A DNA stretch of 64,000 nt, taken from the NCBI GenBank assembly GCA_934378145.1, contig CAKXXW010000004.1, positions 14,658 to 78,657 on the forward strand. Reading direction: 5' to 3'. The stretch comes from an uncultured Eubacteriales bacterium (GTDB lineage Bacteria; Bacillota; Clostridia; Oscillospirales; CAG-272). The position numbers were made by a program, and so were the translations under genes. Positions 8,101-30,149 of the stretch are shown piece by piece. Position 1 is the stretch's first letter; each line of letters begins with the position of its first letter. The notes under the pieces were generated by a model. The model searched no databases, was not told the origin of the DNA, and saw only the letters and a program-made list of their open reading frames with translations.

Positions 8101-8107
8101 GTAAATG

Positions 8108-12484: not shown

Positions 12485-14248
12485 ATGGCTTTTGATGCCG
12501 GAATGCTTGCGGCATCGGTCGCCGAGATCGAAGCCCGTGCGCTGTCGTATCGGGTCGACAGGATCTCTCAGCCATCACGCGATGAGGTCGTTCTGACCCT
12601 TCACGGCAGGGGAGAGAACTGCCGCCTGCTGATAAACGCGGGGCCGAATGCGCCGAGGCTCGGACTGACGCGCGCGGCGGCGGACAATCCCGACAAGCCG
12701 CCCGTATTCTGCCTGCTCCTTCGCAAGCACCTCACGGGAGCAAGGCTGACCGAGGTCAGGCAGCAGGGCTTTGAGCGCGCTGCCGAGTTTACCTTTGCCG
12801 CGCGCGACGAGATGGGATTTTCATGTACGCGGATCCTCATTGCCGAGGTGATGGGGAAGTACAGCAACCTCATCCTCTGCGACGGCGACCGCAAAATAAT
12901 CTCGGCTATGAAGACGGTCGATTTCACGACGAGCAGCAAGCGGCAGGTCCTTCCCGGGATGACCTACGAGATCCCTCCGGTGCAGGACAAGCTGGATCCG
13001 CTTGATACCGACCGTGAAGCCTTTATGAAGGCTTTCGCGGCATTTCCGCCCGAGCGCACCGCCGATAAATTCATCTGCGCGACCTATCTCGGACTTTCGG
13101 CGACGACCGGAAGGGAGATAGCCTTCCGTGCGACCCGCCACACCGATACGCCGCTGACCTTCTGCGACCCCGAGACGCTTTTCGGAGCCTTTTCAGAGGT
13201 CATCGGTGTCATAAAAACAAGAAATTTCAGCCCGACGCTCGTGATGCTTGAAGGCAGACCGGCGGAGTATTCCTTTATGCCGCTTTATCAGTACGGGGAC
13301 GCCGCACTGAAAAGCTTCGACAGCACCGGAGAGCTGCTCGATACCTTCTTTTCGGAGCGGGATCGCGAGCAGAGAACGAGGCAGAGGGCATCCGACCTTC
13401 TGAAGCTCCTCACGAACGCCGAAACGAGGATCAGCAAAAAGCTCTCGGCACAGCGTGCGGAGCTTGCCGACTGCGAGAAGGGAGCTTTCTACCGCGAGAC
13501 GGGAGACCTTATCACGGCGAATATTTACAGGCTGAAGCGGGGCGACCGCGAGGTGACGCTGACCGACTATTCGCATCAGAACGCCGACGGGAGCTTTCCG
13601 GAGGTCAGGGTCGAGCTTGACAGTCGCCTGACGCCTTCGGCAAATGCACAGAGGTACTACAAAAAGTACGCAAAGTCGAAGACGGCGCAGATCGAGCTTG
13701 CAAAGCAGATAAAGCTCGGTGACGCCGAGCTTGAGTATATCTATTCGGTGTTTGATGCACTGACTCACGCGGAGACGGTCGCCGATCTTGCCGAGATACG
13801 CGACGAGCTTTACCGCTCGGGGTACGCCTCAAAGATGAAGTCCTATACCGCAAGCCGCAAGATGCAGAAGCCGACCGTGGCGAAGTTCATCACCTCGGGA
13901 GGCTATACCGTTTATTGCGGAAAGAACAATATTCAGAACGAGTATGTAACATTCCGCCTTGCCGAAAAGAGCGATTGGTGGTTCCACGCGAAGGGGACGC
14001 AGGGCTCGCATGTCCTGCTCGTCAGCCACGGCGAGGAACCGGACGCAAAGGATTTTACAGAAGCGGCGATGGTCGCGGCGTATTATTCGCGCGCCGGAGA
14101 GGGTGCGAGCGTCGAGGTCGACTATACGAAGGCGGGGAATGTAAAGAAGCCCGCAAACGGCAAACCGGGGCTTGTTATCTATCATTCAAATTGGTCGTGT
14201 ACCGTGACGCCCGACGCCGAAGCGGTGCAGAAAATGAGGGTCGGCTGA
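12485..14248 (+). CDS. rqcH: ribosome quality-control factor RqcH (NFACT / FbpA family)
   Basis: NFACT-N N-terminus (MAFDAGML...RVDRISQPSRDEVVLTLHG), a coiled-coil middle region, and an NFACT-R C-terminus (WWFHAKGTQGSHVLL). Confidence 0.88.
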   Translation: MAFDAGMLAASVAEIEARALSYRVDRISQPSRDEVVLTLHGRGENCRLLINAGPNAPRLGLTRAAADNPDKPPVFCLLLRKHLTGARLTEVRQQGFERAAEFTFAARDEMGFSCTRILIAEVMGKYSNLILCDGDRKIISAMKTVDFTTSSKRQVLPGMTYEIPPVQDKLDPLDTDREAFMKAFAAFPPERTADKFICATYLGLSATTGREIAFRATRHTDTPLTFCDPETLFGAFSEVIGVIKTRNFSPTLVMLEGRPAEYSFMPLYQYGDAALKSFDSTGELLDTFFSERDREQRTRQRASDLLKLLTNAETRISKKLSAQRAELADCEKGAFYRETGDLITANIYRLKRGDREVTLTDYSHQNADGSFPEVRVELDSRLTPSANAQRYYKKYAKSKTAQIELAKQIKLGDAELEYIYSVFDALTHAETVADLAEIRDELYRSGYASKMKSYTASRKMQKPTVAKFITSGGYTVYCGKNNIQNEYVTFRLAEKSDWWFHAKGTQGSHVLLVSHGEEPDAKDFTEAAMVAAYYSRAGEGASVEVDYTKAGNVKKPANGKPGLVIYHSNWSCTVTPDAEAVQKMRVG

Positions 14249-14260
14249 CACCGGATAAAG

Positions 14261-14297
14261 AATACGCAGACAAAAGCTTAGCTTTTGTCTGCGTATT
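14261..14297. terminator. bidirectional terminator (rqcH / spoVT convergent)
   Basis: AATACGCAGACAAAAGC-tta-GCTTTTGTCTGCGTATT, a 17-bp stem. Confidence 0.75.
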
Positions 14298-14303
14298 TTG
14301 TAT

Positions 14304-14858
14304 TCAGCTCTCGAGCTGCTTGCCGAGGAAGGACGCGGCGGTCTGGATGAGCTTCGTTTCAAGCTCGGGGGTGAAGTCCGCCGGGCGCGATTCTCCAGTT
14401 CCGAGTACCGATGCCACACATCCCACGATGTCGCCCTCGCTGAGGATAGGCATGGCACAGCTTATGAAGTGAGCCGAGTCCTCGGGGATTGCGGGGAGCT
14501 TCGCGGCGTCGTTCTGCCAGAGATAGAGAGAGCGTGCGGCAATGAGGTCTTCAAGCTCGGGCGAGAGCTTTTTGTCGCTGTATTCCTTGCGCGGAACGCC
14601 TGCGCAGGCGACCACGGCATCGCGGTCGCAGATGATGACAGCCATGTTGCATATCTTGTGAAGTGTCTCGGCGTACTGCGCGGCAAAGCCGGTCAGCTCG
14701 CCGATCGGTGAATATTTTTTGAAGATGACCTCGCCCTCGCGGTCGGTGTAGATCTCAAGCGGGTCGCCCTCGCGGATACGCATGGTGCGGCGGATCTCCT
14801 TCGGGATAACGACCCGTCCGAGGTCGTCGATTCTGCGCACGATTCCTGTTGCTTTCAT
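14304..14858 (-). CDS. spoVT: stage V sporulation protein T (AbrB-type swapped-hairpin N-domain plus GAF-like domain)
   Basis: MKATGIVRRIDDLGRVVIPKEIRRTMRIREGDPLEIY is the canonical SpoVT/AbrB N-terminus, and the 184-aa length fits SpoVT. Confidence 0.92.
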   Translation of the reverse strand: MKATGIVRRIDDLGRVVIPKEIRRTMRIREGDPLEIYTDREGEVIFKKYSPIGELTGFAAQYAETLHKICNMAVIICDRDAVVACAGVPRKEYSDKKLSPELEDLIAARSLYLWQNDAAKLPAIPEDSAHFISCAMPILSEGDIVGCVASVLGTGESRPADFTPELETKLIQTAASFLGKQLES

Positions 14859-15146
14859 TATTTTATAACCATCGCTTTCGGGTTTCCGAAAGCTTCCTTT
14901 CTTTCATGAAGCCTCCGCTCGTGTTCCGCCGTTCGGTCACGGCGGCGTGGAAGCGGGAGCTTTTCAGCCTTGTATTCCGAAAAAACCTGTGCATACGGGT
15001 GTTTTTTCCGTTTGCCTGAAACTATCTTGCGCAGAAAATGAAGATTTATACAAAAACGGCGATTTTGTTCGGGCAGATTATTTTTTGCTCGGTTCATAGA
15101 TAAAAGGCAGTGTGCCTGCGTGCCCTGAATCATGTATGATGCGGTA

Positions 15147-15927: not shown

Positions 15928-15960
15928 AAAAAGCAGAAGATGCTGTGTCTTCTGCTTTTT
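15928..15960. terminator. hairpin; candidate left attachment-site remnant
   Basis: AAAAAGCAGAAGA-tgctgtg-TCTTCTGCTTTTT, a perfect 13-bp stem. Its core GCAGAAGA/TCTTCTGC recurs in the palindrome at 30113-30149. Confidence 0.5.
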
Positions 15961-16049: not shown

Positions 16050-16083
16050 TTATACACGATTATCTTTTATAATTATACACGAT
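16050..16083 (+). repeat. direct repeats TTATACACGAT x2 (candidate integrase arm-type sites)
   Basis: Identical 11-mers at 16050-16060 and 16073-16083, 23 bp apart centre to centre, in the AT-rich region upstream of the integrase. Confidence 0.4.
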
Positions 16084-16246
16084 GTTGTCGAATTTGTCAA
16101 TAGCAAGGCGAATAATAAAAAAACTATTTACAAGCAATATACACTTATGCATATCAAAAATGTATTTTACAAGATATAGCGGGCAGAAAAACGGTTATTT
16201 GCCGTCAGCAATTTCGTCAATATTATACAGATGGGAGGCATCAGCC

Positions 16247-17371
16247 ATGCCAAGGAAAGGTGAAAACATTTATAAAAGAAAGGACGGCAGATGGGAAGGC
16301 AGATATATCTGTTTTTACGATACGGCAAACAAAGCCAAGTATGCCTATGTTTACGGACGAACCTACGGGGAAGTAAGGCAGAAGCTCATTGAAAGGCGCA
16401 GTTCCTCCGGACAACAGATGCATTCTCAAAAGCAAGCCATGATATATAGCGAGCTGTTGGATCTGTGGCTCAACTCATCACAGTTAAGCACAAAGGAGTC
16501 GACGCACGCTCACTATACGCAACTTATAAGTACTCACATCAAGCCACAGCTCGGTTCTTACAGTCTTTCGTGCATTACCCCTAAAATAATAGAAAACTTT
16601 ATAAAATTGCAGCTTTCCGAGGGCAGACTTGACAATACGGGCGGTTTAGCGCCAAAAACAGTTGCGGATATTCTTTCTATTGTAAAAAGTACGATAGAAT
16701 ATGCGAAGTATTTGGATCTTCCCATGATATGTAATCTCAACAAGTTAACGGTAAAGAAAAAAGATAAAGAGATCCGTGTTTTATCGGATGAAGAACAAAA
16801 ATTGTTGCTGAGTGTTTTGCTGACAAATACAGATCCGTACAAATTCGGAGTTTTTTTGTCCCTTTATACCGGTATTCGCATCGGTGAATTGTGTGCATTG
16901 CAATGGGAAGATTTTGACTTTGCCCACAACACCGTCAAAATAAATAAGACTATACAACGCATACAAAATACAGAAGATGAGACCTTTTCCAAAACAAAGG
17001 TCGTCATAACCGAGCCGAAAAGCAAATGCTCGGTAAGAACGATACCTTTGCCTATATTCGTTGCGGATACGGCTGCGCGGTTTGTTTCAAGCCCTAATGC
17101 ATATATATTGACCGGTAAGGATCATTATGCCGAACCGCGTACGATGCAAAACAGATTCAAGGCAATAGTTAAGGAATGCGGCATATCGGATGTTAATTTT
17201 CATGCGCTTCGGCATACTTTTGCCACACGATGTATTGAAGCGGGCTTTGAAATAAAAAGTCTGAGTGAGATACTCGGACATGCAAATGTAAACATTACTC
17301 TCAACCGATATGTTCATTCTTCCTTTGAACTGAAGTCCATAAATATGAATAAGCTGAGCTTATCTGTTTAA
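16247..17371 (+). CDS. tyrosine site-specific recombinase (phage integrase family)
   Basis: GGGAGG at 16233-16238 precedes the ATG at 16247. The N-terminus is arm-binding-like (IYKRKDGRWEGRY). The catalytic region has GIRIGEL (Arg), HALRHTFATR (H-x-x-R) and LGHANVNITLNRYVH (His...Tyr). Confidence 0.9.
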   Translation: MPRKGENIYKRKDGRWEGRYICFYDTANKAKYAYVYGRTYGEVRQKLIERRSSSGQQMHSQKQAMIYSELLDLWLNSSQLSTKESTHAHYTQLISTHIKPQLGSYSLSCITPKIIENFIKLQLSEGRLDNTGGLAPKTVADILSIVKSTIEYAKYLDLPMICNLNKLTVKKKDKEIRVLSDEEQKLLLSVLLTNTDPYKFGVFLSLYTGIRIGELCALQWEDFDFAHNTVKINKTIQRIQNTEDETFSKTKVVITEPKSKCSVRTIPLPIFVADTAARFVSSPNAYILTGKDHYAEPRTMQNRFKAIVKECGISDVNFHALRHTFATRCIEAGFEIKSLSEILGHANVNITLNRYVHSSFELKSINMNKLSLSV

Positions 17372-17517
17372 GCCGTCAAAAACACAGTCAGAAAGACTGA
17401 AATCCTTAGTAAATACGAGGGATTCGGTCTTTTTTTCGTTGAGTTATATACTTTACGAAAATGCGATTTACAGAATATGACAGGGATTTCGGCGATCCGA
17501 CACTCGGAGGTGTGCCT

Positions 17518-18531
17518 ATGCATAGCGTATATTATAATAATTTGAAAAATAACAAAAAAATATACGATGCTGCTCTCCGATGTTTTCAGAACAGAGAAAA
17601 AAGTTTTTCTGTCGAGGCTTCGTTCCCGGTAAATGAATTGGCTGTCGAGGTCTTGAATGATCATCCGGAAATCTTCTATGTGGGGCAGGAATTCAGAGTT
17701 ATGACTGGAATATTTCAGAGAGAGATAATGCCCGTATATTTGTATTCTCCCATCGAGGTCCTGAATATTCGTGATAAACTGAACGATACGGTCAAAAGAA
17801 TTATCGGCGGAAATATCAACAGGCATCAGTCAGACTACGACAAGGTTTGCTCTCTGCATGATTATTTCAAAAGCAACCTGAAATACGATACTGTCGCCGC
17901 AAGCGTTCACAGACCGAATGACCGCACCGTTGCAGAAGCTCACAGCATAGTCGGAGCGCTCCTTGAAAACAAGTGCGTATGTGAGGGATTTGCAAAAGCC
18001 TTTAAGCTCCTGTGCGATAATATCGGATTGGAATGTTGGGTCGTTTCGGGCATGGGTAGAAATTCAATCTGTTCCGGCCCTCACGCGTGGAATATTGTAA
18101 AAATAAACGGATATTATCACCATGTCGATGTCACATGGGATAATCAATATGCGGATCCTTCGGGGTTCCTTAACTACGGTTATATGAACCTGAGCGATGA
18201 TGAGATATCTTCGGATCACACATGGAACCGAAATAATTATCCCGCATGTCCATCTTCTCCATATAACTATTTTCGGGTAAACAATGCTTTGCTTGACAGC
18301 AGAGTTCAGCTCGAAAATATGCTGTACAACTGTTTTCGGGCGGAAGATGAATTCATTATGTTTCGGGTAGTGCGCAGAAGCGCCTTGGAAAGGGAAATAA
18401 ACGTTTGTCTGACAGACAGTATCCGACGGGCGTCAGAGCGATGTAAACACATTTCCGTTTCCGCGTTTCGATGCGGCGGAGTGGCGGAACAGCTTACATT
18501 TTTTGTTCAGCCAGATTACTGTTACGGATAA
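17518..18531 (+). CDS. transglutaminase-like cysteine peptidase-fold protein
   Basis: GGAGG at 17506-17510 precedes the ATG at 17518. The Cys-His-Asp pattern is CVCEGFAKAF ... GPHAWNIV ... HHVDVTWD. Confidence 0.75.
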   Translation: MHSVYYNNLKNNKKIYDAALRCFQNREKSFSVEASFPVNELAVEVLNDHPEIFYVGQEFRVMTGIFQREIMPVYLYSPIEVLNIRDKLNDTVKRIIGGNINRHQSDYDKVCSLHDYFKSNLKYDTVAASVHRPNDRTVAEAHSIVGALLENKCVCEGFAKAFKLLCDNIGLECWVVSGMGRNSICSGPHAWNIVKINGYYHHVDVTWDNQYADPSGFLNYGYMNLSDDEISSDHTWNRNNYPACPSSPYNYFRVNNALLDSRVQLENMLYNCFRAEDEFIMFRVVRRSALEREINVCLTDSIRRASERCKHISVSAFRCGGVAEQLTFFVQPDYCYG

Positions 18532-18612: not shown

Positions 18613-19218
18613 ATGGAAGAAAAAAACAACATTTCCACAGAGGATCTTGAGCAGACACAGGAGGTTCCCAAAGAAACACAGGATGAAAAGGATGAGCTGA
18701 TTTCAAGGTTGGATGCTGTTCGGCAGTCGCTTGCCGATCTGCAGCAGAAATTCGATGACAAGATCGCCGAGGATGAGTACAAGAACGGTCTTTTCGATAA
18801 TATGCACCGTGAATTGGTCCTTTATCAGAACGGGGCATTGGATAAGGTCGTTGATACTGTTGCGCTTGATATTATCCAGCTCGTTGACACCACGAAGGGT
18901 CATGTCCGTGTTTACGAGGATAAGGAGCCTACCGGAGAAAATTACGGGAAACTCCTCAGGATCGTCAAGGGCATTGCGGAAGATCTTGAAGATATTCTTT
19001 ACCGTCAGAATATCGAATCATACAATGTTCCGGGCGATGAAGTGGATGTCCGTCGTCAGAAGATCATTCAGACCGTTCCTACGGATGACAAATCCAATGA
19101 CAACCTCGTGGCGCTTCGTGTCGCCGACGGATATGAAAAGGGCGATAAGGTCCTCAGACCCGAGAGGATCAAGATCTTCAAATATGAAGCCGCGCCCGAA
19201 ACATCTTCAGAAAGTTGA
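18613..19218 (+). CDS. GrpE-like nucleotide-exchange factor paralogue
   Basis: An acidic, coiled-coil N-terminus and a C-terminal beta-domain signature ...VADGYEKGDKVLRPERIKIFKY (compare GrpE GY..x..VLRPAxVxV). GGAGG lies 9 nt upstream of the start. Confidence 0.65.
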   Translation: MEEKNNISTEDLEQTQEVPKETQDEKDELISRLDAVRQSLADLQQKFDDKIAEDEYKNGLFDNMHRELVLYQNGALDKVVDTVALDIIQLVDTTKGHVRVYEDKEPTGENYGKLLRIVKGIAEDLEDILYRQNIESYNVPGDEVDVRRQKIIQTVPTDDKSNDNLVALRVADGYEKGDKVLRPERIKIFKYEAAPETSSES

Positions 19219-19249: not shown

Positions 19250-20926
19250 ATGGGAAAAGTATTTGGCATTGACCTTGGCACAACTTATTCGTGTATCGCA
19301 TACATCGACGATAACGGAAAACCTGTTGTACTGAAAAACGCTGAAGGAGATCTCACCACCCCTTCAGCAGTGTTCTTTGAGACATCTACCGATGTCACCG
19401 TCGGCTCTGCTGCAAAGGAAAGCGCGAAAATGTATCCGGAGCAGGTCGTGACTTTCATCAAGCGGAGTATAGGACAGCCCGGCTTCAGCCTGAATATCAA
19501 CGGTATTGATATGAAACCGGAAGAGATATCCTCATACATTCTTAAAAAAGTAGTTAAGGATGCGGAAGACTCTCTCCGTATGGAGGGCAAACTCGGCGAT
19601 GACGAGAATATCCGCGATGTCGTCATTACCTGCCCGGCATACTTCGGAGTTACCGAGAGGGATGCAACCAAGGCGGCGGGCGTTATTGCCGGTCTTAATG
19701 TTATGGCGATCATCAACGAGCCTACCGCTGCGGCTATCACATACGGTGTAACGGATGACAGCCTGGACAAGACCGTTCTTGTTTATGACCTTGGCGGCGG
19801 TACATTCGATATTACCATGATAAATATCAAGCCGGGAGAGATCCGTGTTATCTGTACCGGCGGCGACCATAACCTCGGAGGTAAGGATTGGGACGATCGT
19901 GTTCTTATGTATCTTGCGGAGCAGTATCAGTCCGAAACCGGAACCCCCGATAATATTCTTGAAGATGCGGAAACACTGCAGGAACTCAGCCTTGCCGCGG
20001 AGCGTGCAAAGAAGCTTTTGAGTGCAAAGGAAAAGGCTCCTGTTGCCGTGAACTATATGGGTGAGCGCGTTCGTGTTGAGCTGACCCGCGAAAAATTCGA
20101 TGAGCTTACCGAAGATCTCCTTACCCGTACAATTGACCTTACCCGTGAAATGTTCAGGGAATCCGAAAAGAAGGGCTTTACTCAGAACGATGTGAGCGAG
20201 ATCCTTCTTGTCGGCGGTTCCTCAAAGATGCCGCAGGTAATGAGTCGCGTCAAGAGCGAATTCGGTATCGAGACCAAGATGTTTGATCCGGATGAATCCG
20301 TTGCAAAGGGCGCAGCCATCTACGCAAACAAGATGAGCGAATTCAACATCGTTCTTGAAGAGATCGCAAAGCAGCAGGGCAAGAGCGTTGAGGAGGTCAA
20401 GGAACAGGTCGACAACGGTCAGATGGACCTTCAGAAGGAAGCCAAAAAGGCGAATATCCAGATGCGCGGCGGACGCCTCCCGGGGGAGGATGTCAAGATC
20501 ATCAATGTATCAAGCCGCAGCTTCGGTACCTGCGCTTATGATGCAAACGATCAGCTCAAACTGTTCAATATTATTATCAAGAACGCCGAGCTGCCTGCGA
20601 CGGGAACAAACTCTTTCTATCCTCGTCAGAATAATCAACAGCTGGTCCGGTTCCAGATCATGGAGAGCCTTGCTTCCGATGAGATAGTAGATCCCGAACT
20701 CGGCAAGGAAATAGGAACAGCGGAACTGACCCTTCCTGCGGGTGTTACTGTTGACACCGAAATCAGGGTCACTTTCCGCTTGGATGAATCGGGACTGCTC
20801 CATCTCAATGCCAAGGAGCTTAAGGGCGGTCGTGAGGTAGATGCCGAATTCCAGACGACCGAGGCACTTTCCGAGAAGGAAATGAGCGATGCCATTCGCC
20901 GAAGCAACAATTCAAGTGTCAACTGA
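19250..20926 (+). CDS. short Hsp70-family ATPase (558 aa; not the housekeeping DnaK)
   Basis: GIDLGTTYSCIAY, IINEPTAAAITYG, VYDLGGGTFDITMI and LLVGGSSKMPQV. A beta-sandwich substrate-binding domain is present. The helical lid is short, and there is an extra charged insert before the interdomain linker. Confidence 0.9.
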   Translation: MGKVFGIDLGTTYSCIAYIDDNGKPVVLKNAEGDLTTPSAVFFETSTDVTVGSAAKESAKMYPEQVVTFIKRSIGQPGFSLNINGIDMKPEEISSYILKKVVKDAEDSLRMEGKLGDDENIRDVVITCPAYFGVTERDATKAAGVIAGLNVMAIINEPTAAAITYGVTDDSLDKTVLVYDLGGGTFDITMINIKPGEIRVICTGGDHNLGGKDWDDRVLMYLAEQYQSETGTPDNILEDAETLQELSLAAERAKKLLSAKEKAPVAVNYMGERVRVELTREKFDELTEDLLTRTIDLTREMFRESEKKGFTQNDVSEILLVGGSSKMPQVMSRVKSEFGIETKMFDPDESVAKGAAIYANKMSEFNIVLEEIAKQQGKSVEEVKEQVDNGQMDLQKEAKKANIQMRGGRLPGEDVKIINVSSRSFGTCAYDANDQLKLFNIIIKNAELPATGTNSFYPRQNNQQLVRFQIMESLASDEIVDPELGKEIGTAELTLPAGVTVDTEIRVTFRLDESGLLHLNAKELKGGREVDAEFQTTEALSEKEMSDAIRRSNNSSVN

Positions 20927-20968
20927 TAAGAATGACATTTGGCTTATGCGAGGAAAGACGGTATTTTA

Positions 20969-23917
20969 ATGGAAAATTATTTTATACTTTTGGAGCTTCC
21001 GTTTGACCCGCCGGAGGGAGATACCCAAAAGATCAACGAGGCTATTTCAAAAAAACAGGCACAGTGGTCTCGGGATCAGTCAAATCCGGTAAAGAAGACC
21101 AAAGCAAGTGAGTATTTGGCGGAGCTTGAAAAGATCAGAAAGGTAATGCTTGATCCGGCAGCCCGCAGGCAGGAAGCCGAAAAAGCAAAGCAAATAAAAG
21201 ACAGTAAGGCGAAAGAGCTTGAAGCAAAGCTCATGCTGTATCATTCCAAGGGTGACGATCTGTCCGAAGAAGATCTGAAGAAGCTTGCTAAGGTATTCGG
21301 GGCATTCGGGTTTTCCGCTGATGAGATAAAACAGAAATTCAACAGCGAGCGGAAGACCCGGGAGAAGATAAACCCGTCAGAGGTCCTTGACAAGACTCAG
21401 GCGCGGAATGTCCGGAATTTTATGCAACAGCTTGACATGAGGGATCAGACCCTGTATGACTTCCTGTGCCTTGATCCGGCAGCTTCATGCACTCAGCTTT
21501 GCGCAGCAGCCGATTCCATGAAGAAAAAGATACTTGCAAAAGGCGATAAAACCGGTCATGATAACGCGGTTCAGGCATTGTGCGGTCTTTGCATTGTAAT
21601 TTTCAAGGATGCGGCAAGCAAGAAAAAATATGACAACTATGTAAACCTTACAAAATACAGATTGGTCAATGAAGCTGTTGATGAGCTTGCGCTGGGTAAT
21701 CAGAAGCGCATCGATCCGAAAATGAAAGAAGGGCTGATCGATACGGCTGTCCGGCAGTATCACATCAGCGTTTCGGATGCTTCGGTTTATATCAATTATT
21801 ACTGCGAATACATGGGCTATGCCCTGCCCGAGAATAAGATCGTATGCGGTCTGTGCGGCGCGGAAAACCCAGCCGGTACCACAAGCTGCATAAAATGCGG
21901 AAAACCGCTCGTTATCCAGTGCCCCGCCTGTTCTGCTCAAAACAATAATTCAGCCAAGGTCTGTGCAAAGTGCGGATTTGACCTTACAAAGATGGATAAG
22001 GCTGTTGAGCTTTTACGGCAGGCAAAGCAAAAGTTCGCGGAAAAATCATACGAAGAAGCCGAAAGGCTTGTTAAGGAAGCCGAGGCGTACTGGCCTAACC
22101 ACGCCGATGCACTCAGTCTTGAAAAATCGATCCATGATGAGCGTAAGCAAGCGGCAGAGATCGTTGCGGCTGTTATGAAAGATATTCAGGACAAGAATAT
22201 GTATGCTGCACAGACAAAAATCGACCAGGCGAGAGCAAAAGGCTTCAATGTCGATCCTTCCGTTGCCGATAAAGTCTCCGCAGTCCTGAAAGAGGTGGAG
22301 GATCGTCTCTCTGTGATGCGCAACGCTTCCGGCGACGAAGCGTTTACCATTGCGGTAAAGCTTACCGAGATCATTTCGGATTCGGATGAACTCAATCAGA
22401 GTCTCAAAAAATTCCCGCCCGATGAGGTCTCTTCTCTGAACAGCAAAAGAGTCGGCGACGAGGTCACATTGACATGGCAAAAGAGTCCGTCCATAGGAGA
22501 AGTATCCTATATCGTGGTACGCAAGGAAAACACTTATCCTAACGGCCCTTCCGACGGTGAGACGGTTTACAACGGCAAGGAGCTTGCCTATACCGACAGA
22601 AGTGTGCATAAGAATGCCGTTCTGTATTATTCGGTTTTTGCGGTCCGTGTCGGAGTTTATTCAAAAGCGACCCGACTTGATGAGGCGGTTGCCGTTGTTG
22701 AAAAGATCACGAATCCGAAAGCTGTCGGCGGGGACGAAATGGTCACACTGTCATGGGCAAAGGATCCGACGGTCACCGAGGTCAGGCTTTATAAATATTG
22801 CGGTTATGAAAGACCGCAGGATGACAGTCGGTATGAGCCGATTCCGTGTACACGGCTGGACGGGATCATTATCAACGGACTGACCAACGGTGCAAGCTAT
22901 TGGTTTGCCGTCAGCGCCGGTCATACACTCAACGGTAAAACATACTTCTCCGAAAAGACCTATCTGTCTGCCGTTCCGCAAAAACCCGCAAAGCCTTTGC
23001 AGAATTTTTCGGTCCGCCTTGTCGACGATGTCTTTCAGGCGAAGTGGATAAAGTCCGAATGGGATGTTATCTTGTTTTACGCAAAGCAGAAGCCCGAATA
23101 CGCCATCGGCACGATCTACGATCTGAGTGAGCTTTTGAGCAAGTATGAAAAGATCGACATCAATATGAAGAGCCTTACAGAGGCGGAGTTCAGACTGAAT
23201 TTTGTCGGTGAATGCTACATCGTTCCCGGTGTCATAAACGCCTCAAATGTGATCCTGAACACGGCTTCTTATATATCTGCCGTTCCCGGAGCAAAGGATG
23301 TATCCTTTGATATAAATTCCGCTGCGACGGAAATGTATGTAAACTTTACATGGCCCAAAGATATAGACAGATCTCTTCTCGTGTACAGAACGGATGAGTA
23401 CCCTACCGGGACAGATGATCCGCTGGCTCATAAGATAGAGTGCAGTAAGCGTCAGTACGAAGCAAACGAAGGTATTTTGATTTCCAAGCCGGCGCAGGGA
23501 ACCATGTATGCTGAGGTTTATACATACTTTGAAAATGACGGTCATCGTGTATATTCGGATGCCTGCCGTGTCCTTCTGAGTAATCAACCTCCAAGGGATG
23601 TACTCTATACATTCACTTACAAAAAGCCGGGGCTGTTCAGTAAGAAATGTACGCTGACTTTGGAACTGCAAACCGACGGAGATTGTGTATTCCCGGAATT
23701 TGTTATCATAAGTAAATACAAAAGCACTCCGTTGAATCGTGGCGACGGCAATGTTTTATGCAAGGTGAACGATAGTATCGAGATCAAGGGGCGGCAGTGC
23801 ATCATTGAGTTTAATATTTCACCGATTAAGCCCGACACCAGACTTAAGATGTTCTTCCTGAATGATAAGAACTATAAATCTTTCAAAATTGCCTGTAAAG
23901 CGGGAAATATCATATAA
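20969..23917 (+). CDS. large multidomain protein: two HPD-less J-like domains, a double zinc ribbon, a helical/TPR-like segment, and an array of FN3-like beta-sandwich repeats
   Basis: NYFILLEL...KINEAISKKQAQWSRDQSNP...YLAELEKIRKVMLDPAARR follows the J-domain helix pattern with SRD in place of HPD. A second copy is LYDFLCLDPAAS...KKYDNY. The zinc ribbon is CGLCG..CIKCG..CPAC..CAKCG. Repeated ...VTLTW/LSW...Y.V.A... modules follow. I prefer the ATG at 20969 over the TTG at 20939. Confidence 0.6.
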   Translation: MENYFILLELPFDPPEGDTQKINEAISKKQAQWSRDQSNPVKKTKASEYLAELEKIRKVMLDPAARRQEAEKAKQIKDSKAKELEAKLMLYHSKGDDLSEEDLKKLAKVFGAFGFSADEIKQKFNSERKTREKINPSEVLDKTQARNVRNFMQQLDMRDQTLYDFLCLDPAASCTQLCAAADSMKKKILAKGDKTGHDNAVQALCGLCIVIFKDAASKKKYDNYVNLTKYRLVNEAVDELALGNQKRIDPKMKEGLIDTAVRQYHISVSDASVYINYYCEYMGYALPENKIVCGLCGAENPAGTTSCIKCGKPLVIQCPACSAQNNNSAKVCAKCGFDLTKMDKAVELLRQAKQKFAEKSYEEAERLVKEAEAYWPNHADALSLEKSIHDERKQAAEIVAAVMKDIQDKNMYAAQTKIDQARAKGFNVDPSVADKVSAVLKEVEDRLSVMRNASGDEAFTIAVKLTEIISDSDELNQSLKKFPPDEVSSLNSKRVGDEVTLTWQKSPSIGEVSYIVVRKENTYPNGPSDGETVYNGKELAYTDRSVHKNAVLYYSVFAVRVGVYSKATRLDEAVAVVEKITNPKAVGGDEMVTLSWAKDPTVTEVRLYKYCGYERPQDDSRYEPIPCTRLDGIIINGLTNGASYWFAVSAGHTLNGKTYFSEKTYLSAVPQKPAKPLQNFSVRLVDDVFQAKWIKSEWDVILFYAKQKPEYAIGTIYDLSELLSKYEKIDINMKSLTEAEFRLNFVGECYIVPGVINASNVILNTASYISAVPGAKDVSFDINSAATEMYVNFTWPKDIDRSLLVYRTDEYPTGTDDPLAHKIECSKRQYEANEGILISKPAQGTMYAEVYTYFENDGHRVYSDACRVLLSNQPPRDVLYTFTYKKPGLFSKKCTLTLELQTDGDCVFPEFVIISKYKSTPLNRGDGNVLCKVNDSIEIKGRQCIIEFNISPIKPDTRLKMFFLNDKNYKSFKIACKAGNII

Positions 23918-23928
23918 GGAGACAAAAA

Positions 23929-25044
23929 ATGGCAGGAAAATTTCTGTGTCCACGATGCTTTGAATTACAAAGCCTCGATAAAATAGAGTACATTTGTTCA
24001 AATACAAGCACATCATCAAAATGTCAGCACGCGATCGACAGAACGCCTCAGCATCCGGCAAACCTGAAAAAACCGGTATGCGAGGAGTGCGGACAGCCCC
24101 TCGTGACCAAGGTGTGTCCCAAATGCGGCGGCGAACTTCCGCTGAACATAGGGACCGCAAAGAGCTATCCGATTGCAATTATCGGTGCAAAGGAAACCGG
24201 CAAGAGCAACTATGTTGCGGTTCTGATAAATCAGCTTAAGAATGAGGTCGGGCGTTCCTTCAACTGCGCTCTGATGGCTTGCGGGGACAAGACCCTGAAC
24301 CGTTACCGCACGGATTTTTACGATCCTCTGTATCGTCACCGTACCTGTGTACGCGGCTCGGATGCAGGTGATGTCGATCCGCTTATTTACTCTTTGATCT
24401 TTCAGAGAAAGGGCGGTTTGTTCAAGAAAGCCGTAAATGATGCCGTTTCCCTGACTTTCTTTGATACGGCGGGTGAAAACCTTAATTCGCTGGCTTCAAT
24501 GCAGACCTTTAACCGCTATCTTTATCATTCATCAGGCATCATTCTTCTGCTCGATCCCCTGCAGCTTCCTGCGGTAAGGGCAGAGCTTCAGGGAAAGATA
24601 CGCCTGCCCGAAGAGAATACCGACGTAAACACGATCCTCAACAGAACTATCGAGATCATCAGGACAGGATCCGGTTTGACGGATCTCAGTAAAAAGATCG
24701 ATATCCCGATCGCGATCTCTTTCACAAAGATCGATGCCGTTGACGAGCTTCTCGATCCCGCAAGCTGTCTGAAAAACGATTCGGCTCACATTCGTAAAGG
24801 CTTTTTTGACAAAGTTGATTTTGAGGATGCCAACAATGAAATGCAGAGCCTGGTTGAAAACTGGCTCGGTACCGAACTGTATCAAACGGTATCTACTCAG
24901 TTTTCAAATTTTGCATTCTTCGGTCTGAGCGCTTTGGGCAGTAATCCGGATATGGATAACAAGATCCCGAAGTTCCGCCCGTTCCGTGTCGCGGATCCGT
25001 TTCTGTGGATACTTTCACAGGAACAGATAATTCCGGTTAAATAA
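23929..25044 (+). CDS. zinc-ribbon-fused P-loop GTPase (soluble paralogue)
   Basis: The N-terminus has CPRC...C..C and CEEC...CPKC. G1 is GAKETGKS (24184-24207), G3 is DTAGE (D179-G182), and G4-like is TKID (T266-D269). AGGAG lies before the ATG. Confidence 0.7.
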   Translation: MAGKFLCPRCFELQSLDKIEYICSNTSTSSKCQHAIDRTPQHPANLKKPVCEECGQPLVTKVCPKCGGELPLNIGTAKSYPIAIIGAKETGKSNYVAVLINQLKNEVGRSFNCALMACGDKTLNRYRTDFYDPLYRHRTCVRGSDAGDVDPLIYSLIFQRKGGLFKKAVNDAVSLTFFDTAGENLNSLASMQTFNRYLYHSSGIILLLDPLQLPAVRAELQGKIRLPEENTDVNTILNRTIEIIRTGSGLTDLSKKIDIPIAISFTKIDAVDELLDPASCLKNDSAHIRKGFFDKVDFEDANNEMQSLVENWLGTELYQTVSTQFSNFAFFGLSALGSNPDMDNKIPKFRPFRVADPFLWILSQEQIIPVK

Positions 25045-25055
25045 GGGGGACCGTT

Positions 25056-27644
25056 ATGAAAGCATTGCAATACATATATACTTCCTGGAAGAACGGTGAC
25101 TCTACTGAAAAGGGCTATATGATATACTCTCGTTCCGAGGGTATTACGGATTCCGAGTGCAGTGCGATCAAGGATGCCATGCAGTATCTTGCCCCAAAGG
25201 GATTGACGCTCACGCCAACTCCGCAGGAGATCGAAGACATATTTCCGTATGCGTTTGCTTATTTTGTACTCCCGACGGGCAGGGGGTGTGTTGCTCAGTC
25301 AACCTATCTCGGGAAAGACTACTCCGGCAGATATGGGAACTATATCATTCACGCGTTGATCTTTGATATTGACGATCTGCCGTGCCGCCCCGCGGAGTTT
25401 TTTGCCGAACCGTACATAAAGACCGCGATGACTCAGGAAGAATTGGATGCCCCTTCTCCGGTACCGCCGTTGCCGCCGTTGTATATATCAGAGTATGCGT
25501 CGGTTATAAATGACGAACAATTAAATGAATTCCTTTTTGACAAGGAAGATGAATTTTCACAGCTTATTTCACTTGTTCTGGCGGCACAGGACGCCGGTGT
25601 TCCGTTTTATCTGAACGATTCCCGCGAGAACCTTGTGTTGTGGTCCGCCGCCGTTCAGAGAATACTTCCTTCTCGGTTGGCAAAGAAGTTCACATTCAAT
25701 ACCTATATCGGGAACCACGAATCAATGCGTTCTCCGAGAGCAAGGGAAGAGAACCTGAACTTTATGCTTATCGGGGTAAGACCTGATGCGAATTATTTCA
25801 ATTACGCAACCGAAAGCAACAGCAATTGCCAGATCGTGATGGACTTTGTCGGAGGATACATGACACAGGGAGTTCTTCCGGGCAGTTTTGCACGCGCTAT
25901 GGCGGCGAGTATGGCATTTGATTGTGAAGAGGTCGATGCTTTCGGTGAATTTGTCGACTCTACATCATTCGATGAGATCAGCGGTCATTTGCAGGATGCC
26001 TATCTGTATTATCACCTGCTGAAGCACGACGGGTTTGAATTCACCGAAAACGATCTGAAGGCGGTGCTTTCATTCGGTTCCGATTATTGCTCCGAAGCTG
26101 ATAATTCGGATATAGGGAGTAAACTGTTGGTCAAGGCCCAGGAGAATGAATGGACCCTTGATCCCGAACTGTTTGCGGTGTTCTGGAAGTTTATTTGCAG
26201 ATATTCGGGCTTTATGATATTCACACTGTATGAGCTGTTGACCGAAACGCTCTTTCAACATGCAGGTGAAGCCTCCGGACCCTGCATCGGACTTGAATCA
26301 TTGATAAATACCTTAAAGGAAGAGACTCCGGAGCAGTACAAGGGTTATCTTGATTACCTGAACTCCTCAAGCAGCGTAGAACACCTGCTCCTGTATCTGT
26401 CCGGACATAACAATCCGTTTACCAACAGCTTCTACATAAAATGGTTGCTTCGCAGCTATTCGTTCAGCGGCGGTATGTCAAACGGTCAGCCTATCTCAAA
26501 ACTTTTGCAGGTCTTGCTGAAGAATGTTACCCGCATAAATGGATGTGAAAAGCAGATGATGGAAATTCTTATTGCCACATCCGATAATCAGGTACTTTTC
26601 AAAAACATTTTCGGCATTTTTATGATCGCATTGCGTGAGTCGAAACAGCTTGATAGGTTTTGCGATGAGTATCTGGATGCAGCAGCTTCTCTGACGACCG
26701 GGCAACTTGATCGGTTTGAACAGTTGTTGCCTGAAGCGCCGGGATCCGAACCTGTCGCTACAAGGCTGTTCGCAAGGAAGATCGCAGCCTCAGATGATCC
26801 CGAAACCGAGTTCTGGCATTTCTACGGCAATCAGCGTTCCCGTATTTCCGAAAGCTCCGGAGTTTCCGCTGATCCCATGATACTTGCATGTGTCAATAAT
26901 GTTGAAGCCAAGAAACGCACGGAGGTTGCTGTTGACATCCTCCGAAAGATCGATCCGTCGCAGATCAATGATCGTGAAACTATCCGAACCCTGACTGATG
27001 CTGTTGAGGATTGCAGTGTGAAGGAACTTTCAAAAATGGAAGTATCCTTTTTGCAGAAGGTTTGTCAGATCCGAGCAAAGGTTGATAAAAACGGTCCGGA
27101 AAAGATCACCGCGGTCCTCGTCGGAGAAATGTTGGCTACAGATAATGCACAACGCAGACGCCCCGTAAAGCTGGCAGGTGAATTAGCAAAAACAAAAATC
27201 ACTTTGCAGCATTTGGATAAATCGGACTACGAGTCTTACCTCAAGAACTACTTCGGTGAGTATTTTGTATTGATAAAGACAAAAGAGGATATTCCGGCGC
27301 TGGTCAGGATCTTTTATCACGGTCAGTATTTTTCGAGTTTTGCGGATGATTATATGTCTGCGTTGAAAAAAGCGGAAAAAAGAGAGCCGGAAATCCGGGA
27401 TCGCATTCTCGGATGGACATGCACATATGTGGTTACTGCCGAAAGAAGTGATCCGGGTGCAGATGATATGTATAAACCGCTTGTCCGTTATTTGCGTTCG
27501 TTAAATGAAGATGAATTGTCGGGTGTTCGTAAATTCGTCACTAAGGATGTTCCGGCTGCCCGCTGCGACTATTTGTTCGACGAAGCCCGCCGCAAGGAAG
27601 GCATTTCGGAAAAGCTCGGCAACCTGTTTCATAAATTCAAATAG
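25056..27644 (+). CDS. large (862 aa) mostly helical protein with a GAP1-like (GTPase-associated protein) N-terminal domain
   Basis: The N-terminus LQYIYTSWKNGDSTEKGYMIYSRSEGI...GNYIIHALIF resembles my memory of GTPase-associated protein 1 N-domains. The rest has no motifs I recognise. The gene is flanked at 11-15 nt spacing by GTPase-system genes. Confidence 0.45.
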   Translation: MKALQYIYTSWKNGDSTEKGYMIYSRSEGITDSECSAIKDAMQYLAPKGLTLTPTPQEIEDIFPYAFAYFVLPTGRGCVAQSTYLGKDYSGRYGNYIIHALIFDIDDLPCRPAEFFAEPYIKTAMTQEELDAPSPVPPLPPLYISEYASVINDEQLNEFLFDKEDEFSQLISLVLAAQDAGVPFYLNDSRENLVLWSAAVQRILPSRLAKKFTFNTYIGNHESMRSPRAREENLNFMLIGVRPDANYFNYATESNSNCQIVMDFVGGYMTQGVLPGSFARAMAASMAFDCEEVDAFGEFVDSTSFDEISGHLQDAYLYYHLLKHDGFEFTENDLKAVLSFGSDYCSEADNSDIGSKLLVKAQENEWTLDPELFAVFWKFICRYSGFMIFTLYELLTETLFQHAGEASGPCIGLESLINTLKEETPEQYKGYLDYLNSSSSVEHLLLYLSGHNNPFTNSFYIKWLLRSYSFSGGMSNGQPISKLLQVLLKNVTRINGCEKQMMEILIATSDNQVLFKNIFGIFMIALRESKQLDRFCDEYLDAAASLTTGQLDRFEQLLPEAPGSEPVATRLFARKIAASDDPETEFWHFYGNQRSRISESSGVSADPMILACVNNVEAKKRTEVAVDILRKIDPSQINDRETIRTLTDAVEDCSVKELSKMEVSFLQKVCQIRAKVDKNGPEKITAVLVGEMLATDNAQRRRPVKLAGELAKTKITLQHLDKSDYESYLKNYFGEYFVLIKTKEDIPALVRIFYHGQYFSSFADDYMSALKKAEKREPEIRDRILGWTCTYVVTAERSDPGADDMYKPLVRYLRSLNEDELSGVRKFVTKDVPAARCDYLFDEARRKEGISEKLGNLFHKFK

Positions 27645-27659
27645 AAAGGAGATCATGTG

Positions 27660-27878
27660 ATGAACGAAAAGCGAAAATGTATGGTGGGGCATGATGATGA
27701 TCACGGCGGATGTTTCGGATGTCTGTTTACGGTTCTGATAGCAATTATCGTAATAATGATAATATGCGCAGTTGTTGTCTTCGGCGGTGTTTTTATCGGC
27801 GGCTTCCATTCGATCAAGAATTACATTCTTGCGTTCAAGCACAATGTTTTTGACAGCAACCTTGCTCCCGCAAAATGA
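27660..27878 (+). CDS. small membrane protein (72 aa)
   Basis: AAGGAG at 27646-27651 lies 8 nt before the ATG at 27660. The sequence HDDDHGGCFGC is followed by a hydrophobic stretch of about 35 residues (LFTVLIAIIVIMIICAVVVFGGVFIGGF). Confidence 0.5.
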   Translation: MNEKRKCMVGHDDDHGGCFGCLFTVLIAIIVIMIICAVVVFGGVFIGGFHSIKNYILAFKHNVFDSNLAPAK

Positions 27879-27913
27879 AGAATTAGCTCAATAAAAGAAA
27901 GGAGACTTTTGTT

Positions 27914-29326
27914 ATGGCAAACACGCAACCCGCAAAGAAAAGCTATTTCTTCGGAAAAGGCTATGTTGATTTGTGGAACACAATCAAAGAATCATGGGCA
28001 AGGAACTTTCAGTCCGCAGGTAGGCAGTTCGCTCTTGCCAAGGCAAACAGAGTCCTCAGCATAAAGGGTGGAATTCATCTTATCGCCGCAATCTGTATCG
28101 TTACATTCGGCAGCGTTATTTCGGCTTTTACCACTCTGTTCCACATTACCGTTCTGTTTGCGTTTTTCGCTTTGATCTATGTAGGTTTCAGTATCGTCTG
28201 GCTGATTGACAGGATCTACATAATGATAAATAAGATCAAAAACGCCTGTCCGAATCCCGATTGTCAGGCGTCGTTCCTCATCCCGGTCTATGAATGTCCG
28301 CAGTGCGGCGCAAAGCATACGAAGCTGGTACCCGGAAAGTACGGAATTTTCAAACGCACCTGCAATTGCGGACATAAGCTCCCCACGACCTTCCTGAACG
28401 GTCGCGGACGACTTAAGGCTTATTGTCCGAAATGCGGTAATGCGCTGTCCGGAGACACAGCGAGCCGTCAGTATGCATTTCCCGTTATCGGCGGACCGTC
28501 CGTCGGCAAGACCTGCTTCATCAATATGGCTATTGACCAGATGATGACCGATGTTGCCCCCCAACGCGGCTGGCAAATGAACTTTATTTCCGAAACCGAA
28601 GAAAAGGACCATGATCTCGCTATGAGGTCGCTGAATCAGGGCGTCCGTTTGTTGAAGACCGAACTTGACTCCCTTACCGCTTATCAGTTGATGCTTAAGC
28701 TGCCCAAGGAAAAGATCGGTCGCCGCATTTACATTTATGATATTTCGGGTGAAATGTTTTCGAGCAGCGGTGATGTTCAGCACAACCTTGCGTACAGCTA
28801 TGCAAACGGTTTTATATTTATTATCGACCCGCTTACTCTGAGTCAGTTTGCTATGGATGTTGAGGATAAACTTGACCCGGCTTCTTACGGTGCAAGCTCC
28901 AAGGACTTTGATGACATTCTCAACATTATGCTGATTAACCTTGAGAAAATGTTCAACCTGAAGGATAAGGATATATTGAAGCGCGATCTTGCGGTGGTGA
29001 TCAACAAGGTAGATATTCCCACTTTGGAGGAGAAGATCGGAGAGACCGCGGTGAGACAGTACCTTGATGATAACGCCGATACCTGCAAGACATATCCGGA
29101 TGCCCGCGACGCGGTTTGCCGCAGCTTCCTCGAGGAATACGGTGCCGGCAACTTTGTCCGTACCGCGGAAGCCAAGTTCAAAACGGTCAGATACTTTACC
29201 TGCAGCGCCCTCGGTCATAACAATGAGGGGCAGCCTTATGAAGGCAAGAATGTTGTCGATCCGGTAATGTGGTTGCTCCAGCGTGCTGATTCAAGCATTA
29301 AGATTGATCAACCGGTAACAAAGTAA
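27914..29326 (+). CDS. membrane-anchored zinc-ribbon P-loop GTPase (paralogue of 23929-25044)
   Basis: Two TM helices (about residues 52-100) and four Cys pairs (C112/C117, C128/C131, C150/C152, C171/C174). G1 is GGPSVGKT (28490-28513), G3 is DISGE (D276-G279), and G4 is NKVD (N364-D367). It shares hhhhDPL(Q/T)L after G3 with the other GTPase. Confidence 0.7.
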   Translation: MANTQPAKKSYFFGKGYVDLWNTIKESWARNFQSAGRQFALAKANRVLSIKGGIHLIAAICIVTFGSVISAFTTLFHITVLFAFFALIYVGFSIVWLIDRIYIMINKIKNACPNPDCQASFLIPVYECPQCGAKHTKLVPGKYGIFKRTCNCGHKLPTTFLNGRGRLKAYCPKCGNALSGDTASRQYAFPVIGGPSVGKTCFINMAIDQMMTDVAPQRGWQMNFISETEEKDHDLAMRSLNQGVRLLKTELDSLTAYQLMLKLPKEKIGRRIYIYDISGEMFSSSGDVQHNLAYSYANGFIFIIDPLTLSQFAMDVEDKLDPASYGASSKDFDDILNIMLINLEKMFNLKDKDILKRDLAVVINKVDIPTLEEKIGETAVRQYLDDNADTCKTYPDARDAVCRSFLEEYGAGNFVRTAEAKFKTVRYFTCSALGHNNEGQPYEGKNVVDPVMWLLQRADSSIKIDQPVTK

Positions 29327-29384: not shown

Positions 29385-29412
29385 AGTTTACGGTATGACG
29401 GAGGGAACTGCC

Positions 29413-30117
29413 ATGAGGGGGCTTAAGGTATGCATTGCTTTACTTAATATTGCCGTTACGGTTGCTTTTCTGTATTTCGAAAATCGTCTGTCGCCGGCGG
29501 CTATGGGGATCGCAGTGCTGTTTTTTACTCTCAGCTCGGCACTTCATTTGACGGCACACGAATGCGGACATCTTGTCGGTGGTGCTGTAAGCGGGTATAA
29601 ATTATTGTGTCTGCAACTCGGTCCGCTGAATATTGTCAGCAAAAAGGGCAAGTTCGTTCTCGTGTGGAAAATGTCTTTTGACGGACAGTGCGTAATGATA
29701 CCGGAGCATACGGATCCGGTGCGTTTTATGTCATATAATATTGGAGGCGTCATTGCAAATGCTTTGATTGCGGTTCTGAGCTTTACGGCTTTGATCACAG
29801 GATCCTTCCGGTCCCGGCTACTGTTTATCGAACTTATATTTGTCGGCATACAAAAAATATTGCTGAACACAATTCCTCATAAAACGGGTTCGGTACCGAA
29901 TGACGGATACATTGTGCGGCTTCTTAAGGGAAATACTGCTGTTCAAAAGGATTATGCGATGTATTTAAGACTTTACGGTAAGCTGTTTTCGGCTGAAGAC
30001 ATAAAGGTTCAGGATTTTATGTACGAACGGGAGGAGCCCGGAAATGAGGAAGAAATGCTATATTACAATGAGATCATGGATATACTGAACTCCGTGAATT
30101 CGCAGACAAATAAGTGA
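29413..30117 (+). CDS. polytopic membrane zinc metalloprotease, site-2-protease (M50)-like
   Basis: GGAGGG at 29400-29405 precedes the ATG at 29413. HECGH (29557-29571) lies within a TM helix. A later LNTIPHKTGSVPNDGY resembles the S2P NxxPxxxxDG motif. Several TM segments are present. Confidence 0.65.
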   Translation: MRGLKVCIALLNIAVTVAFLYFENRLSPAAMGIAVLFFTLSSALHLTAHECGHLVGGAVSGYKLLCLQLGPLNIVSKKGKFVLVWKMSFDGQCVMIPEHTDPVRFMSYNIGGVIANALIAVLSFTALITGSFRSRLLFIELIFVGIQKILLNTIPHKTGSVPNDGYIVRLLKGNTAVQKDYAMYLRLYGKLFSAEDIKVQDFMYEREEPGNEEEMLYYNEIMDILNSVNSQTNK

Positions 30118-30149
30118 AAGGCAGAAGATGATTCATCTTCTGCCTTTCA
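30113..30149. terminator. perfect 37-nt palindrome (18-bp arms) at the end of the array; candidate right attachment-site remnant
   Basis: GTGAAAGGCAGAAGATGA-t-TCATCTTCTGCCTTTCAC. It overlaps the stop codon of the protease gene. Confidence 0.55.

Follow-up and report, generated by a model that had tools for sequence, protein, structure and literature searches.

The closest described relatives of the system reported here are the DO-GTPase/GAP1-N2 systems, a group of GTPase-centric conflict systems that was delineated by comparative genomics (Kaur, Burroughs, Iyer and Aravind, eLife 2020; PMC7159879). DO-GTPases were described there as a new family within the TRAFAC class whose Walker B motif contains a conserved Glu, and they carry one or two N-terminal zinc ribbons, have transmembrane (TM) segments in one copy and are followed by a downstream gene for GAP1, a name that stands for GTPase-associated protein 1 and not for a GTPase-activating protein (PMC7159879). 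GAP1-N2 systems include an FN3-repeat protein, and a theme with Hsp70 and GrpE, in which FN3 is fused to DnaJ or TPR, is found mainly in firmicutes and actinobacteria (PMC7159879). It was already proposed that the pair of GTPases works as a dimer near the membrane, two GTPase copies were counted in only 38% of systems, and the membrane GTPase was reported with four N-terminal TM helices; defence against phages or mobile elements was suggested, with the conflict role argued from effector variability (PMC7159879). Literature searches found no experimental study of DO-GTPases, and besides Kaur et al. the only paper found to mention them is a further comparative study (PMC11237479). The subject of this study is a pair of zinc-ribbon GTPase genes in a 64,000-nucleotide stretch of contig CAKXXW010000004.1 (hereafter the window), assembled from an uncultured Eubacteriales bacterium. 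One gene encodes a soluble protein (GTPase A) and the other a membrane-anchored protein (GTPase B), and both lie in a tight plus-strand operon of ~12 kb from a human-gut Clostridia lineage. Their identity as a DO-GTPase pair is put forward with high confidence, and it is very likely that they are the paired DO-GTPases (DO-GTPase2, TRAFAC) of a GAP1-N2 system of the Hsp70/GrpE theme, for which a mechanism is proposed below.

The motifs of the two proteins carry this assignment. GTPase A begins with two zinc ribbons (Cys7/10/23/32 and Cys51/54/63/66), followed by G1 GAKETGKS (residues 86-93), G3 DTAGE (179-183), G4 TKID (266-269) and a G5-like LSALG. GTPase B has the same arrangement, with zinc ribbons at Cys112/117/128/131 and Cys150/152/171/174, G1 GGPSVGKT (193-200), G3 DISGE (276-280), G4 NKVD (364-367) and a G5-like CSALG, and it also has a conserved N-terminal YFFGKGYxDL motif. 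The stretch GIILLLDPLQL in A (DPL at residues 209-211) corresponds to GFIFIIDPLTL in B (DPL at 305-307), and besides this DPL after strand 4 the proteins have a C-terminal DP..W.L motif in common. A preliminary description of this DNA had delimited both open reading frames (ORFs) correctly and had listed the G1, G3, DPL(Q/T)L and (N/T)KxD motifs, all of which are present where it placed them; the multiple CxxC pairs that it assigned to both proteins are found in A, but B has only two strict CxxC pairs, the other two being CxxxxC and CxC. Conservation of the motifs was judged on an alignment of 20 homologues for each GTPase. The P-loop Gly and Lys of GK[ST], the D..GE motif, DPL and the Lys and Asp of G4 were invariant in both alignments and the SAL-type G5 was conserved in both, while all eight zinc-ribbon Cys were invariant in B and seven were invariant in A, with the remaining one nearly so (at least 90%). 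Judged from these sequences, both GTPases retain all motifs for nucleotide binding and hydrolysis, including the signature Glu after DxxG. The [N/T]KxD motif, earlier taken as a sign of guanine specificity, is conserved among the homologues of both proteins and supports such a specificity for A and B.

A and B are ancient paralogues, as had been supposed from their shared strand and DPL motif. BLASTP aligned them at 23% identity over 328 amino acids (aa) with an E-value of 5e-14, and profile-profile comparison with hhalign gave a probability of 99.6% (E 1.2e-24, 276 columns). GTPase B passes the cut-off of the Pfam family DO-GTPase2 (PF19993; 32.8 bits against 27). A precomputed PF19993 assignment is carried by nearly all of the homologues listed for A (120 listed of 794; 39-96% identity) and for B (120 listed of 707). 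In databases these homologues are named 'TRAFAC clade GTPase domain-containing' or 'Double-GTPase 2 domain-containing' protein. The A profile matched 4,225 cluster representatives at E <=1e-3 among 1.84 billion proteins. A sequence-profile search of the PDB found no solved relative of A, and zinc-ribbon ribosomal proteins were the only matches. AlphaFold2 models were obtained for A (pLDDT, the predicted local distance difference test score, 86.6; pTM, the predicted TM-score, 0.87) and for B (pLDDT 81.2). When both models were compared with the PDB using Foldseek, only TRAFAC GTPases were among the top matches, with E-values of ~1e-5 to 1e-4. These included atlastin-1, Ras/Rap/Arl, Ski7, EF-Tu/eEFSec, MglA, SR-beta, G-alpha, Der and YcjX, none of which was clearly closest. 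The structure search therefore puts both proteins in the TRAFAC class and not with AAA or ABC ATPases.

The two TM helices that the preliminary description had placed ahead of the zinc ribbons of B fit a hydrophobic stretch at residues 46-105, which is compatible with two TM segments. AlphaFold2 drew one long helix at residues 50-105, longer than one pass through the membrane allows, and basic residues flank residues 47-105 on both sides. Because positive residues are found on both flanks, B is probably anchored by a two-TM hairpin (~47-105) with both ends in the cytoplasm.

The distribution of the genes shows that they travel together. A scan with the A profile of one genome per species (185,579 species) gave at least 466 loci, 80 of which were retrieved. 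Duplicates aside, the 67 loci that extend 7 kb or more downstream of A were treated as informative, their ORFs being classed with phmmer. GAP1 was present at 65 of these 67 loci and a B-type GTPase at 61, and in the loci listed A, GAP1 and B lie on the same strand in that order. The host taxa are diverse and include Oscillospiraceae and Lachnospiraceae metagenome-assembled genomes (MAGs), Clostridium, Bacillaceae, Thiomargarita, Beggiatoa, Planctomycetes, Acidobacteria, Streptomyces and others. The division into a soluble and a membrane protein is also kept, as A-type proteins are without TM segments (except for one fused ORF, L059) and B-type proteins nearly always have them (except for four short Clostridium ORFs). 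Mirror-tree analysis gave distance correlations of r = 0.80 for A and B, 0.92 for A and GAP1 and 0.84 for B and GAP1 (Mantel p = 0.001 each). Since the distance matrices are correlated, the duplication is old and A, GAP1 and B are inherited as a module; co-inheritance of the two paralogues, on which the earlier idea of a working pair had been made to depend, is thus borne out.

Within this module A evolves much more slowly than B (mean pairwise distance 0.55 against 0.70). Amino-acid identity to the closest relatives is 96-70% for A, 93-80% for Hsp70, 85-52% for B, 83-45% for the FN3 protein, 78-34% for GAP1 and 61-34% for the HExxH protein encoded after B. Against the nearest loci (L005-L008) A has 94-96% protein identity at only 72-78% DNA identity. 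Therefore A is under very strong purifying selection. No other protein of the operon evolves as slowly, and the fastest are GAP1 and the HExxH protein. The occurrence of A proteins 94-96% identical in MAGs binned to different families raised the possibility of recent horizontal transfer, which was rejected on the same low DNA identity.

Several loci depart from the common arrangement. Six of the 67 have A without a detectable B (L015, L016, L020, L047, L059 and L070), and four of these have GAP1. In four loci of the Clostridium bowmanii group (L031, L034, L035 and L038; ~13874-14859) the ORFs at the position of B are 323-326 aa long and keep the zinc-ribbon Cys pairs without a Walker A motif or TM segments; truncation or decay of a B paralogue may account for them. 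In L075 (10001-12489) and L078 (9983-13789), from Lachnospiraceae and Ruminococcus, GAP1 is preceded by two or three A-type genes in tandem, and the B-type gene opens the operon and does not follow GAP1; in L075 a gene for a small membrane protein described below lies alongside it. Lastly, some gut-metagenome contigs encode a single protein (P0126; P0176, at 8001-9977 of locus L089; and P0235) in which residues ~90-302 of the transglutaminase-like protein are joined directly to B at about its residue 5. In L089 a HExxH-like gene follows the fusion, and the genes for GrpE, Hsp70, the FN3 protein, A and GAP1 are missing between the fused parts. These transglutaminase-like/B fusions look like deletion derivatives of the operon beside an integrase fragment.

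The genes of the operon, preceded by an integrase gene that is context and not part of the conserved system, are as follows.

16082..17371, plus strand: tyrosine integrase (Pfam Phage_integrase, 94 bits)
17461..18531, plus strand: transglutaminase-like accessory protein with a thiol peptidase fold (Pfam Transglut_core, 42 bits)
18613..19218, plus strand: GrpE-like nucleotide-exchange factor (Pfam GrpE, 43.9 bits)
19250..20926, plus strand: Hsp70 paralogue dedicated to the system (Pfam HSP70, 347 bits)
20939..23917, plus strand: FN3-repeat component, 992 aa (Pfam DZR match and PDB profile search)
23929..25044, plus strand: soluble DO-GTPase of type A, 371 aa (motifs, Pfam, AlphaFold2, Foldseek)
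25056..27644, plus strand: GAP1, 862 aa, with GAP1-N2, GAP1-M and a helical C-terminal region (Pfam)
27660..27878, plus strand: small conserved membrane protein, 72 aa (ORF, ribosome-binding site, conservation, fusions to B)
27914..29326, plus strand: membrane-anchored DO-GTPase of type B, 470 aa (motifs, hydropathy, Pfam, AlphaFold2, Foldseek)
29395..30117, plus strand: accessory polytopic membrane protein with HExxH, 240 aa, weakly M50-like (Pfam M50 E 0.058, sub-threshold)

The spacers between the gene for the 992-aa protein and A and between A and GAP1 are 11 nucleotides each, and good ribosome-binding sites precede both GTPase genes. The GTPase genes flank GAP1, as had been described, but GAP1 is not alone between them, since the 269-nucleotide 'gap' holds the 72-aa gene. 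The Hsp70 scores 351 against the NCBIfam DnaK model, far under the equivalog cut-off of 648, and an Hsp70 is encoded at 36 of the 67 related loci. The transglutaminase-like gene occurs in some relatives only (L009, L011 and L072), and the HExxH membrane protein is kept downstream of B in the closest relatives only (34-61% identity).

The 992-aa protein, for which the ATG at 20969 is the likely start, is the FN3 component of the system. Single-sequence Pfam analysis detected no FN3 in it, but a profile built from the protein and its relatives matched titin and fibronectin FN3 in the PDB (E 1.9e-13 to 1e-3, the best being titin FN3 at 1.9e-13), as well as DZR, the double zinc ribbon (E 5.6e-5), and the TPR of OGT (E 0.0016). 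Weak J-domain matches (E 0.005-0.04) recur at two positions, residues ~1-70 and ~156-232. The HPD motif is absent from both of these J-like regions, and therefore canonical J-domain function of the protein is doubtful. Any contact that the J-like regions make with the private Hsp70 would probably be of a non-canonical kind.

GAP1 matches the Pfam families GAP1-N2 with 83.3 bits and GAP1-M with 24.8 bits (cut-off 24), and its C-terminal region is helical and fast-evolving. No solved relative was found in the PDB by sequence, where only weak helical-repeat matches were obtained. In the GAP1-N2 domain (25056-25450) an alignment of 17 sequences revealed an invariant loop, G86-x-D88-Y89-x2-R92-x-G94-N95, which reads GKDYSGRYGN in the window. 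As pure speculation, the invariant Arg of this loop could be a catalytic or 'finger' residue.

The 72-aa protein has a hydrophobic segment and a C-terminal GGFHSIKNYxLAFKHN motif, and no Pfam family matches it. Its gene has its own AGGAG ribosome-binding site and is listed in public gene calls too. A hidden Markov model of the protein found homologues directly upstream of B-type GTPases at ~20 loci in several phyla. At 13 or more other loci (from Clostridium, a Planctomycetaceae MAG and Streptomyces; for example L017, L073 and L081) the module and B are fused into one reading frame, with the module at the N-terminal end, directly ahead of the YFFGKGYxDL motif. As Rosetta-stone evidence, these fusions suggest that the 72-aa protein and B are physical partners. 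The possibility that the ORF is a read-through of GAP1, which has the same frame in the window, was rejected because the frame varies (0, 1 or 2) among relatives and the gene has its own ribosome-binding site. The 72-aa gene and its fusion to B are an addition of this analysis.

Comparison of the locus with the published systems leaves little doubt about the family. The TRAFAC fold, DxxGE, the zinc ribbons, GAP1-N2/GAP1-M encoded downstream, paired GTPases of which one has TM segments, and a linked FN3 protein are the defining features of DO-GTPase/GAP1-N2 systems, and all were found here. The features of the Hsp70/GrpE theme, which are Hsp70 and GrpE encoded alongside and FN3 in one protein with TPR and weak J-like matches, were found as well, so that paired zinc-ribbon GTPases, GAP1, an FN3/J/TPR protein, Hsp70 with GrpE and a Firmicutes host are the same in both. 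The preliminary description had implied novelty by calling the domain make-up different from that of known GTPase pairs. This is not the case, as the same make-up defines DO-GTPase/GAP1-N2 systems and is covered by Pfam; the trio of A, B and GAP1 was already described in 2020 and is encoded in PF19993, PF20013 and PF20014, and its detection here is a rediscovery. There are some differences from the systems of Kaur et al., however. GTPase B has only the two-TM hairpin, without a C-terminal TM segment or an extracellular domain, and the N-terminal membrane module is a separate 72-aa gene; this split-off gene partly explains why B here has two TM helices whereas four N-terminal helices were reported in the paper. 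Additionally, only one Hsp70 is encoded and a second, Hsp70-vWA gene is lacking, HPD is missing from the J-like domains, and the accessory genes encode the transglutaminase-like protein and the HExxH membrane protein.

Better known GTPases offer analogies only. Some of the best structural matches are to atlastin, GBP and dynamin-like proteins (atlastin-1, E 5e-5 to 1e-5). These belong to the TRAFAC class, have a TM-hairpin tether and act through nucleotide-dependent dimerisation of their G-domains. However, TM-scores to atlastin are ~0.3 at 9-14% identity, the hairpin of atlastin is C-terminal, its dimers are homodimers and it is without zinc ribbons, a GAP1 partner, DxxGE or an equivalent stalk/middle domain. 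A and B do not belong with dynamin or atlastin, since only the generic G-domain superposes, no stalk was found and there was no Pfam match to dynamin or GBP. MglA/MglB and Ras-like GTPases share the same core G-domain fold (target-normalised TM-score ~0.6 for Ras) and are switch GTPases regulated by a dedicated partner that is encoded adjacent. In contrast, A and B are of twice the size, contain inserts and zinc ribbons and have Glu in place of the catalytic Gln, and GAP1 is unrelated by sequence to Roadblock or RasGAP. The likeness to SRP54/FtsY drawn in the preliminary description holds for the arrangement, as SRP54 and FtsY are paired soluble and membrane-associated GTPases that form a mutually activating heterodimer. 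SRP and FtsY are SIMIBI-class GTPases, not TRAFAC, and the resemblance is one of analogy only; neither has zinc ribbons or a partner of the GAP1 type, and both were absent from the structural matches of A and B.

The operon sits in a ~14-kb stretch of low guanine-plus-cytosine (GC) content (0.40-0.49 compared with ~0.55 in the flanks) that starts with the tyrosine integrase gene. A hairpin, GCAGAAGA-N7-TCTTCTGC, is found at 15933-15955 and 30121-30143, at both edges of this stretch; it is absent elsewhere in the window and was found in none of 100 shuffles. The two copies may mark where an integrative island ends, or they may be related terminators. Because low GC, an integrase and bounding hairpins coincide, a 14-kb island may carry the system as cargo in this lineage. 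It should be noted that the hairpin does not recur in other loci, that an integrase next to the system is not conserved in other loci, and that a search for direct att repeats of at least 12 nucleotides flanking the island gave nothing convincing. To the left, on the minus strand, lie genes for an NFACT/RqcH-type ribosome quality-control protein and SpoVT (12485-14248 and 14304-14858), which indicates a spore-forming Firmicute host. Identical contigs are known from human-gut metagenomes, including Hadza samples.

From these parts a mechanism can be proposed, which taken as a whole is tentative and has somewhat less than an even chance of being right. The two-helix hairpin and the 72-aa membrane protein would together keep GTPase B on the cytoplasmic side of the membrane, and GTP-dependent pairing of the A and B G-domains would recruit A to B. 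The GAP1-N2/M domains would organise this pairing and form a threshold switch, while the FN3/TPR/J-like protein would sense the trigger and couple the dedicated Hsp70/GrpE to the switch. The variable parts, namely the C-terminal region of GAP1, the transglutaminase-like protein and the HExxH protein, would deliver the output. An A:B heterodimer or relay, as first suggested for this locus, is plausible.

Some observations weigh against placing the locus in this family of conflict systems, or against the role that this implies. GTPase A alone scores 26.8 bits for DO-GTPase2, just under the gathering cut-off of 27, and B has two TM helices and no C-terminal TM segment. PADLOC defence models matched none of eight operon proteins (the 72-aa protein was not among them), no relatives were found in 50,697 phage records and only two in plasmid records, no canonical toxic effector is present in the operon, and the purifying selection on A looks more like that on a housekeeping switch than on an arms-race gene. 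Alternatively, the system could be a machine for membrane or envelope stress, protein quality control or development and not an immune one, with the GTPase switch recruiting the private Hsp70/GrpE/J-like set to the membrane. The results with PADLOC and with the phage and plasmid records, the absence of any nuclease- or toxin-type effector, the conservation of A and Hsp70 at the protein level despite 72-78% DNA identity and the co-divergence of the components as a stable module would all be in keeping with this. However, the distribution is patchy, at no fewer than 466 loci in 185,579 species genomes, the operon shares a low-GC island with an integrase gene, the accessory parts (the GAP1 C-terminal region, FN3 and the M50-like protein) vary and evolve fast, deletion derivatives occur in related strains, and Kaur et al. 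argue for a conflict role from effector variability (PMC7159879). A non-immune role is an alternative, if a less likely one.

A second question is whether A and B form an obligate heterodimer, as they could also act separately or sequentially and contact GAP1 independently; B might, for instance, be a membrane receptor or timer while A serves as a diffusible switch. The six loci without a detectable B, the two or three A-type copies in L075 and L078, the two GTPase copies in only 38% of published systems (PMC7159879) and the much slower evolution of A all suit such an arrangement. In contrast, the distances of A and B are correlated (r = 0.80), gene order and strand are fixed across phyla, and surface motifs of the family (DPL after strand 4 and DP..W.L) are shared by the two proteins, which leaves separate action possible but improbable, to about the same degree as a non-immune role. 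Much less room is left for the idea that one paralogue is a catalytically dead pseudo-GTPase scaffold. Pseudo-GTPases are common among duplicated GTPases, and the short B-like ORFs of the four Clostridium loci have no Walker A motif or TM segment, but GK[ST], DxxGE and the G4 Lys and Asp are invariant in A and B, both in the window and in the 20-sequence alignments, and this makes a dead paralogue very improbable here. It is even harder to sustain that the likeness of the P-loop domains to GTPases is superficial and that they are in fact ATPases of the AAA+, ABC or kinase type. A weak Pfam AAA_14 match on the P-loop of A (E 0.024) would fit, but Foldseek matched exclusively TRAFAC GTPases with both models, [N/T]KxD and a SAL-type G5 are conserved, and in the model of A DxxG ends the strand after an antiparallel strand pair. 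Paired DO-GTPases of a GAP1-N2 Hsp70/GrpE system are therefore retained as the preferred reading of A and B.

The value of these results is largely confirmatory, as the family, the pairing, the zinc ribbons, the membrane anchoring, GAP1 and the link to Hsp70/GrpE were all published in 2020. What this analysis adds is the 72-aa gene, the finding that A is the slowest-evolving protein, the low-GC stretch of ~14 kb, and the integrase gene at its start with the repeated hairpin that bounds it. One further reading goes beyond the published model and is a long shot, namely that the core has four parts and not three. The 72-aa protein (GG-x3-[IL]-[KR]-N-[YF]-x2-[AS]-[FL]-[KR]-x-N) would then be an obligate partner of B and would form a membrane-side sensing or docking site with the invariant YFFGKGYxDL peptide at the N-terminus of B. 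A heterodimer of A and B would control whether the private Hsp70 is recruited, and the invariant Arg in the 'GKDYSGRxGN' loop of GAP1-N2 might activate this heterodimer as an arginine finger. If this is true, the system would be a bacterial GTPase-gated chaperone-recruitment switch without a characterised counterpart. The split 72-aa membrane gene belongs in any construct of the system. With its intact motifs and many homologues, this unusual prokaryotic GTPase switch is a reasonable first test case for the biochemistry and genetics of DO-GTPases.

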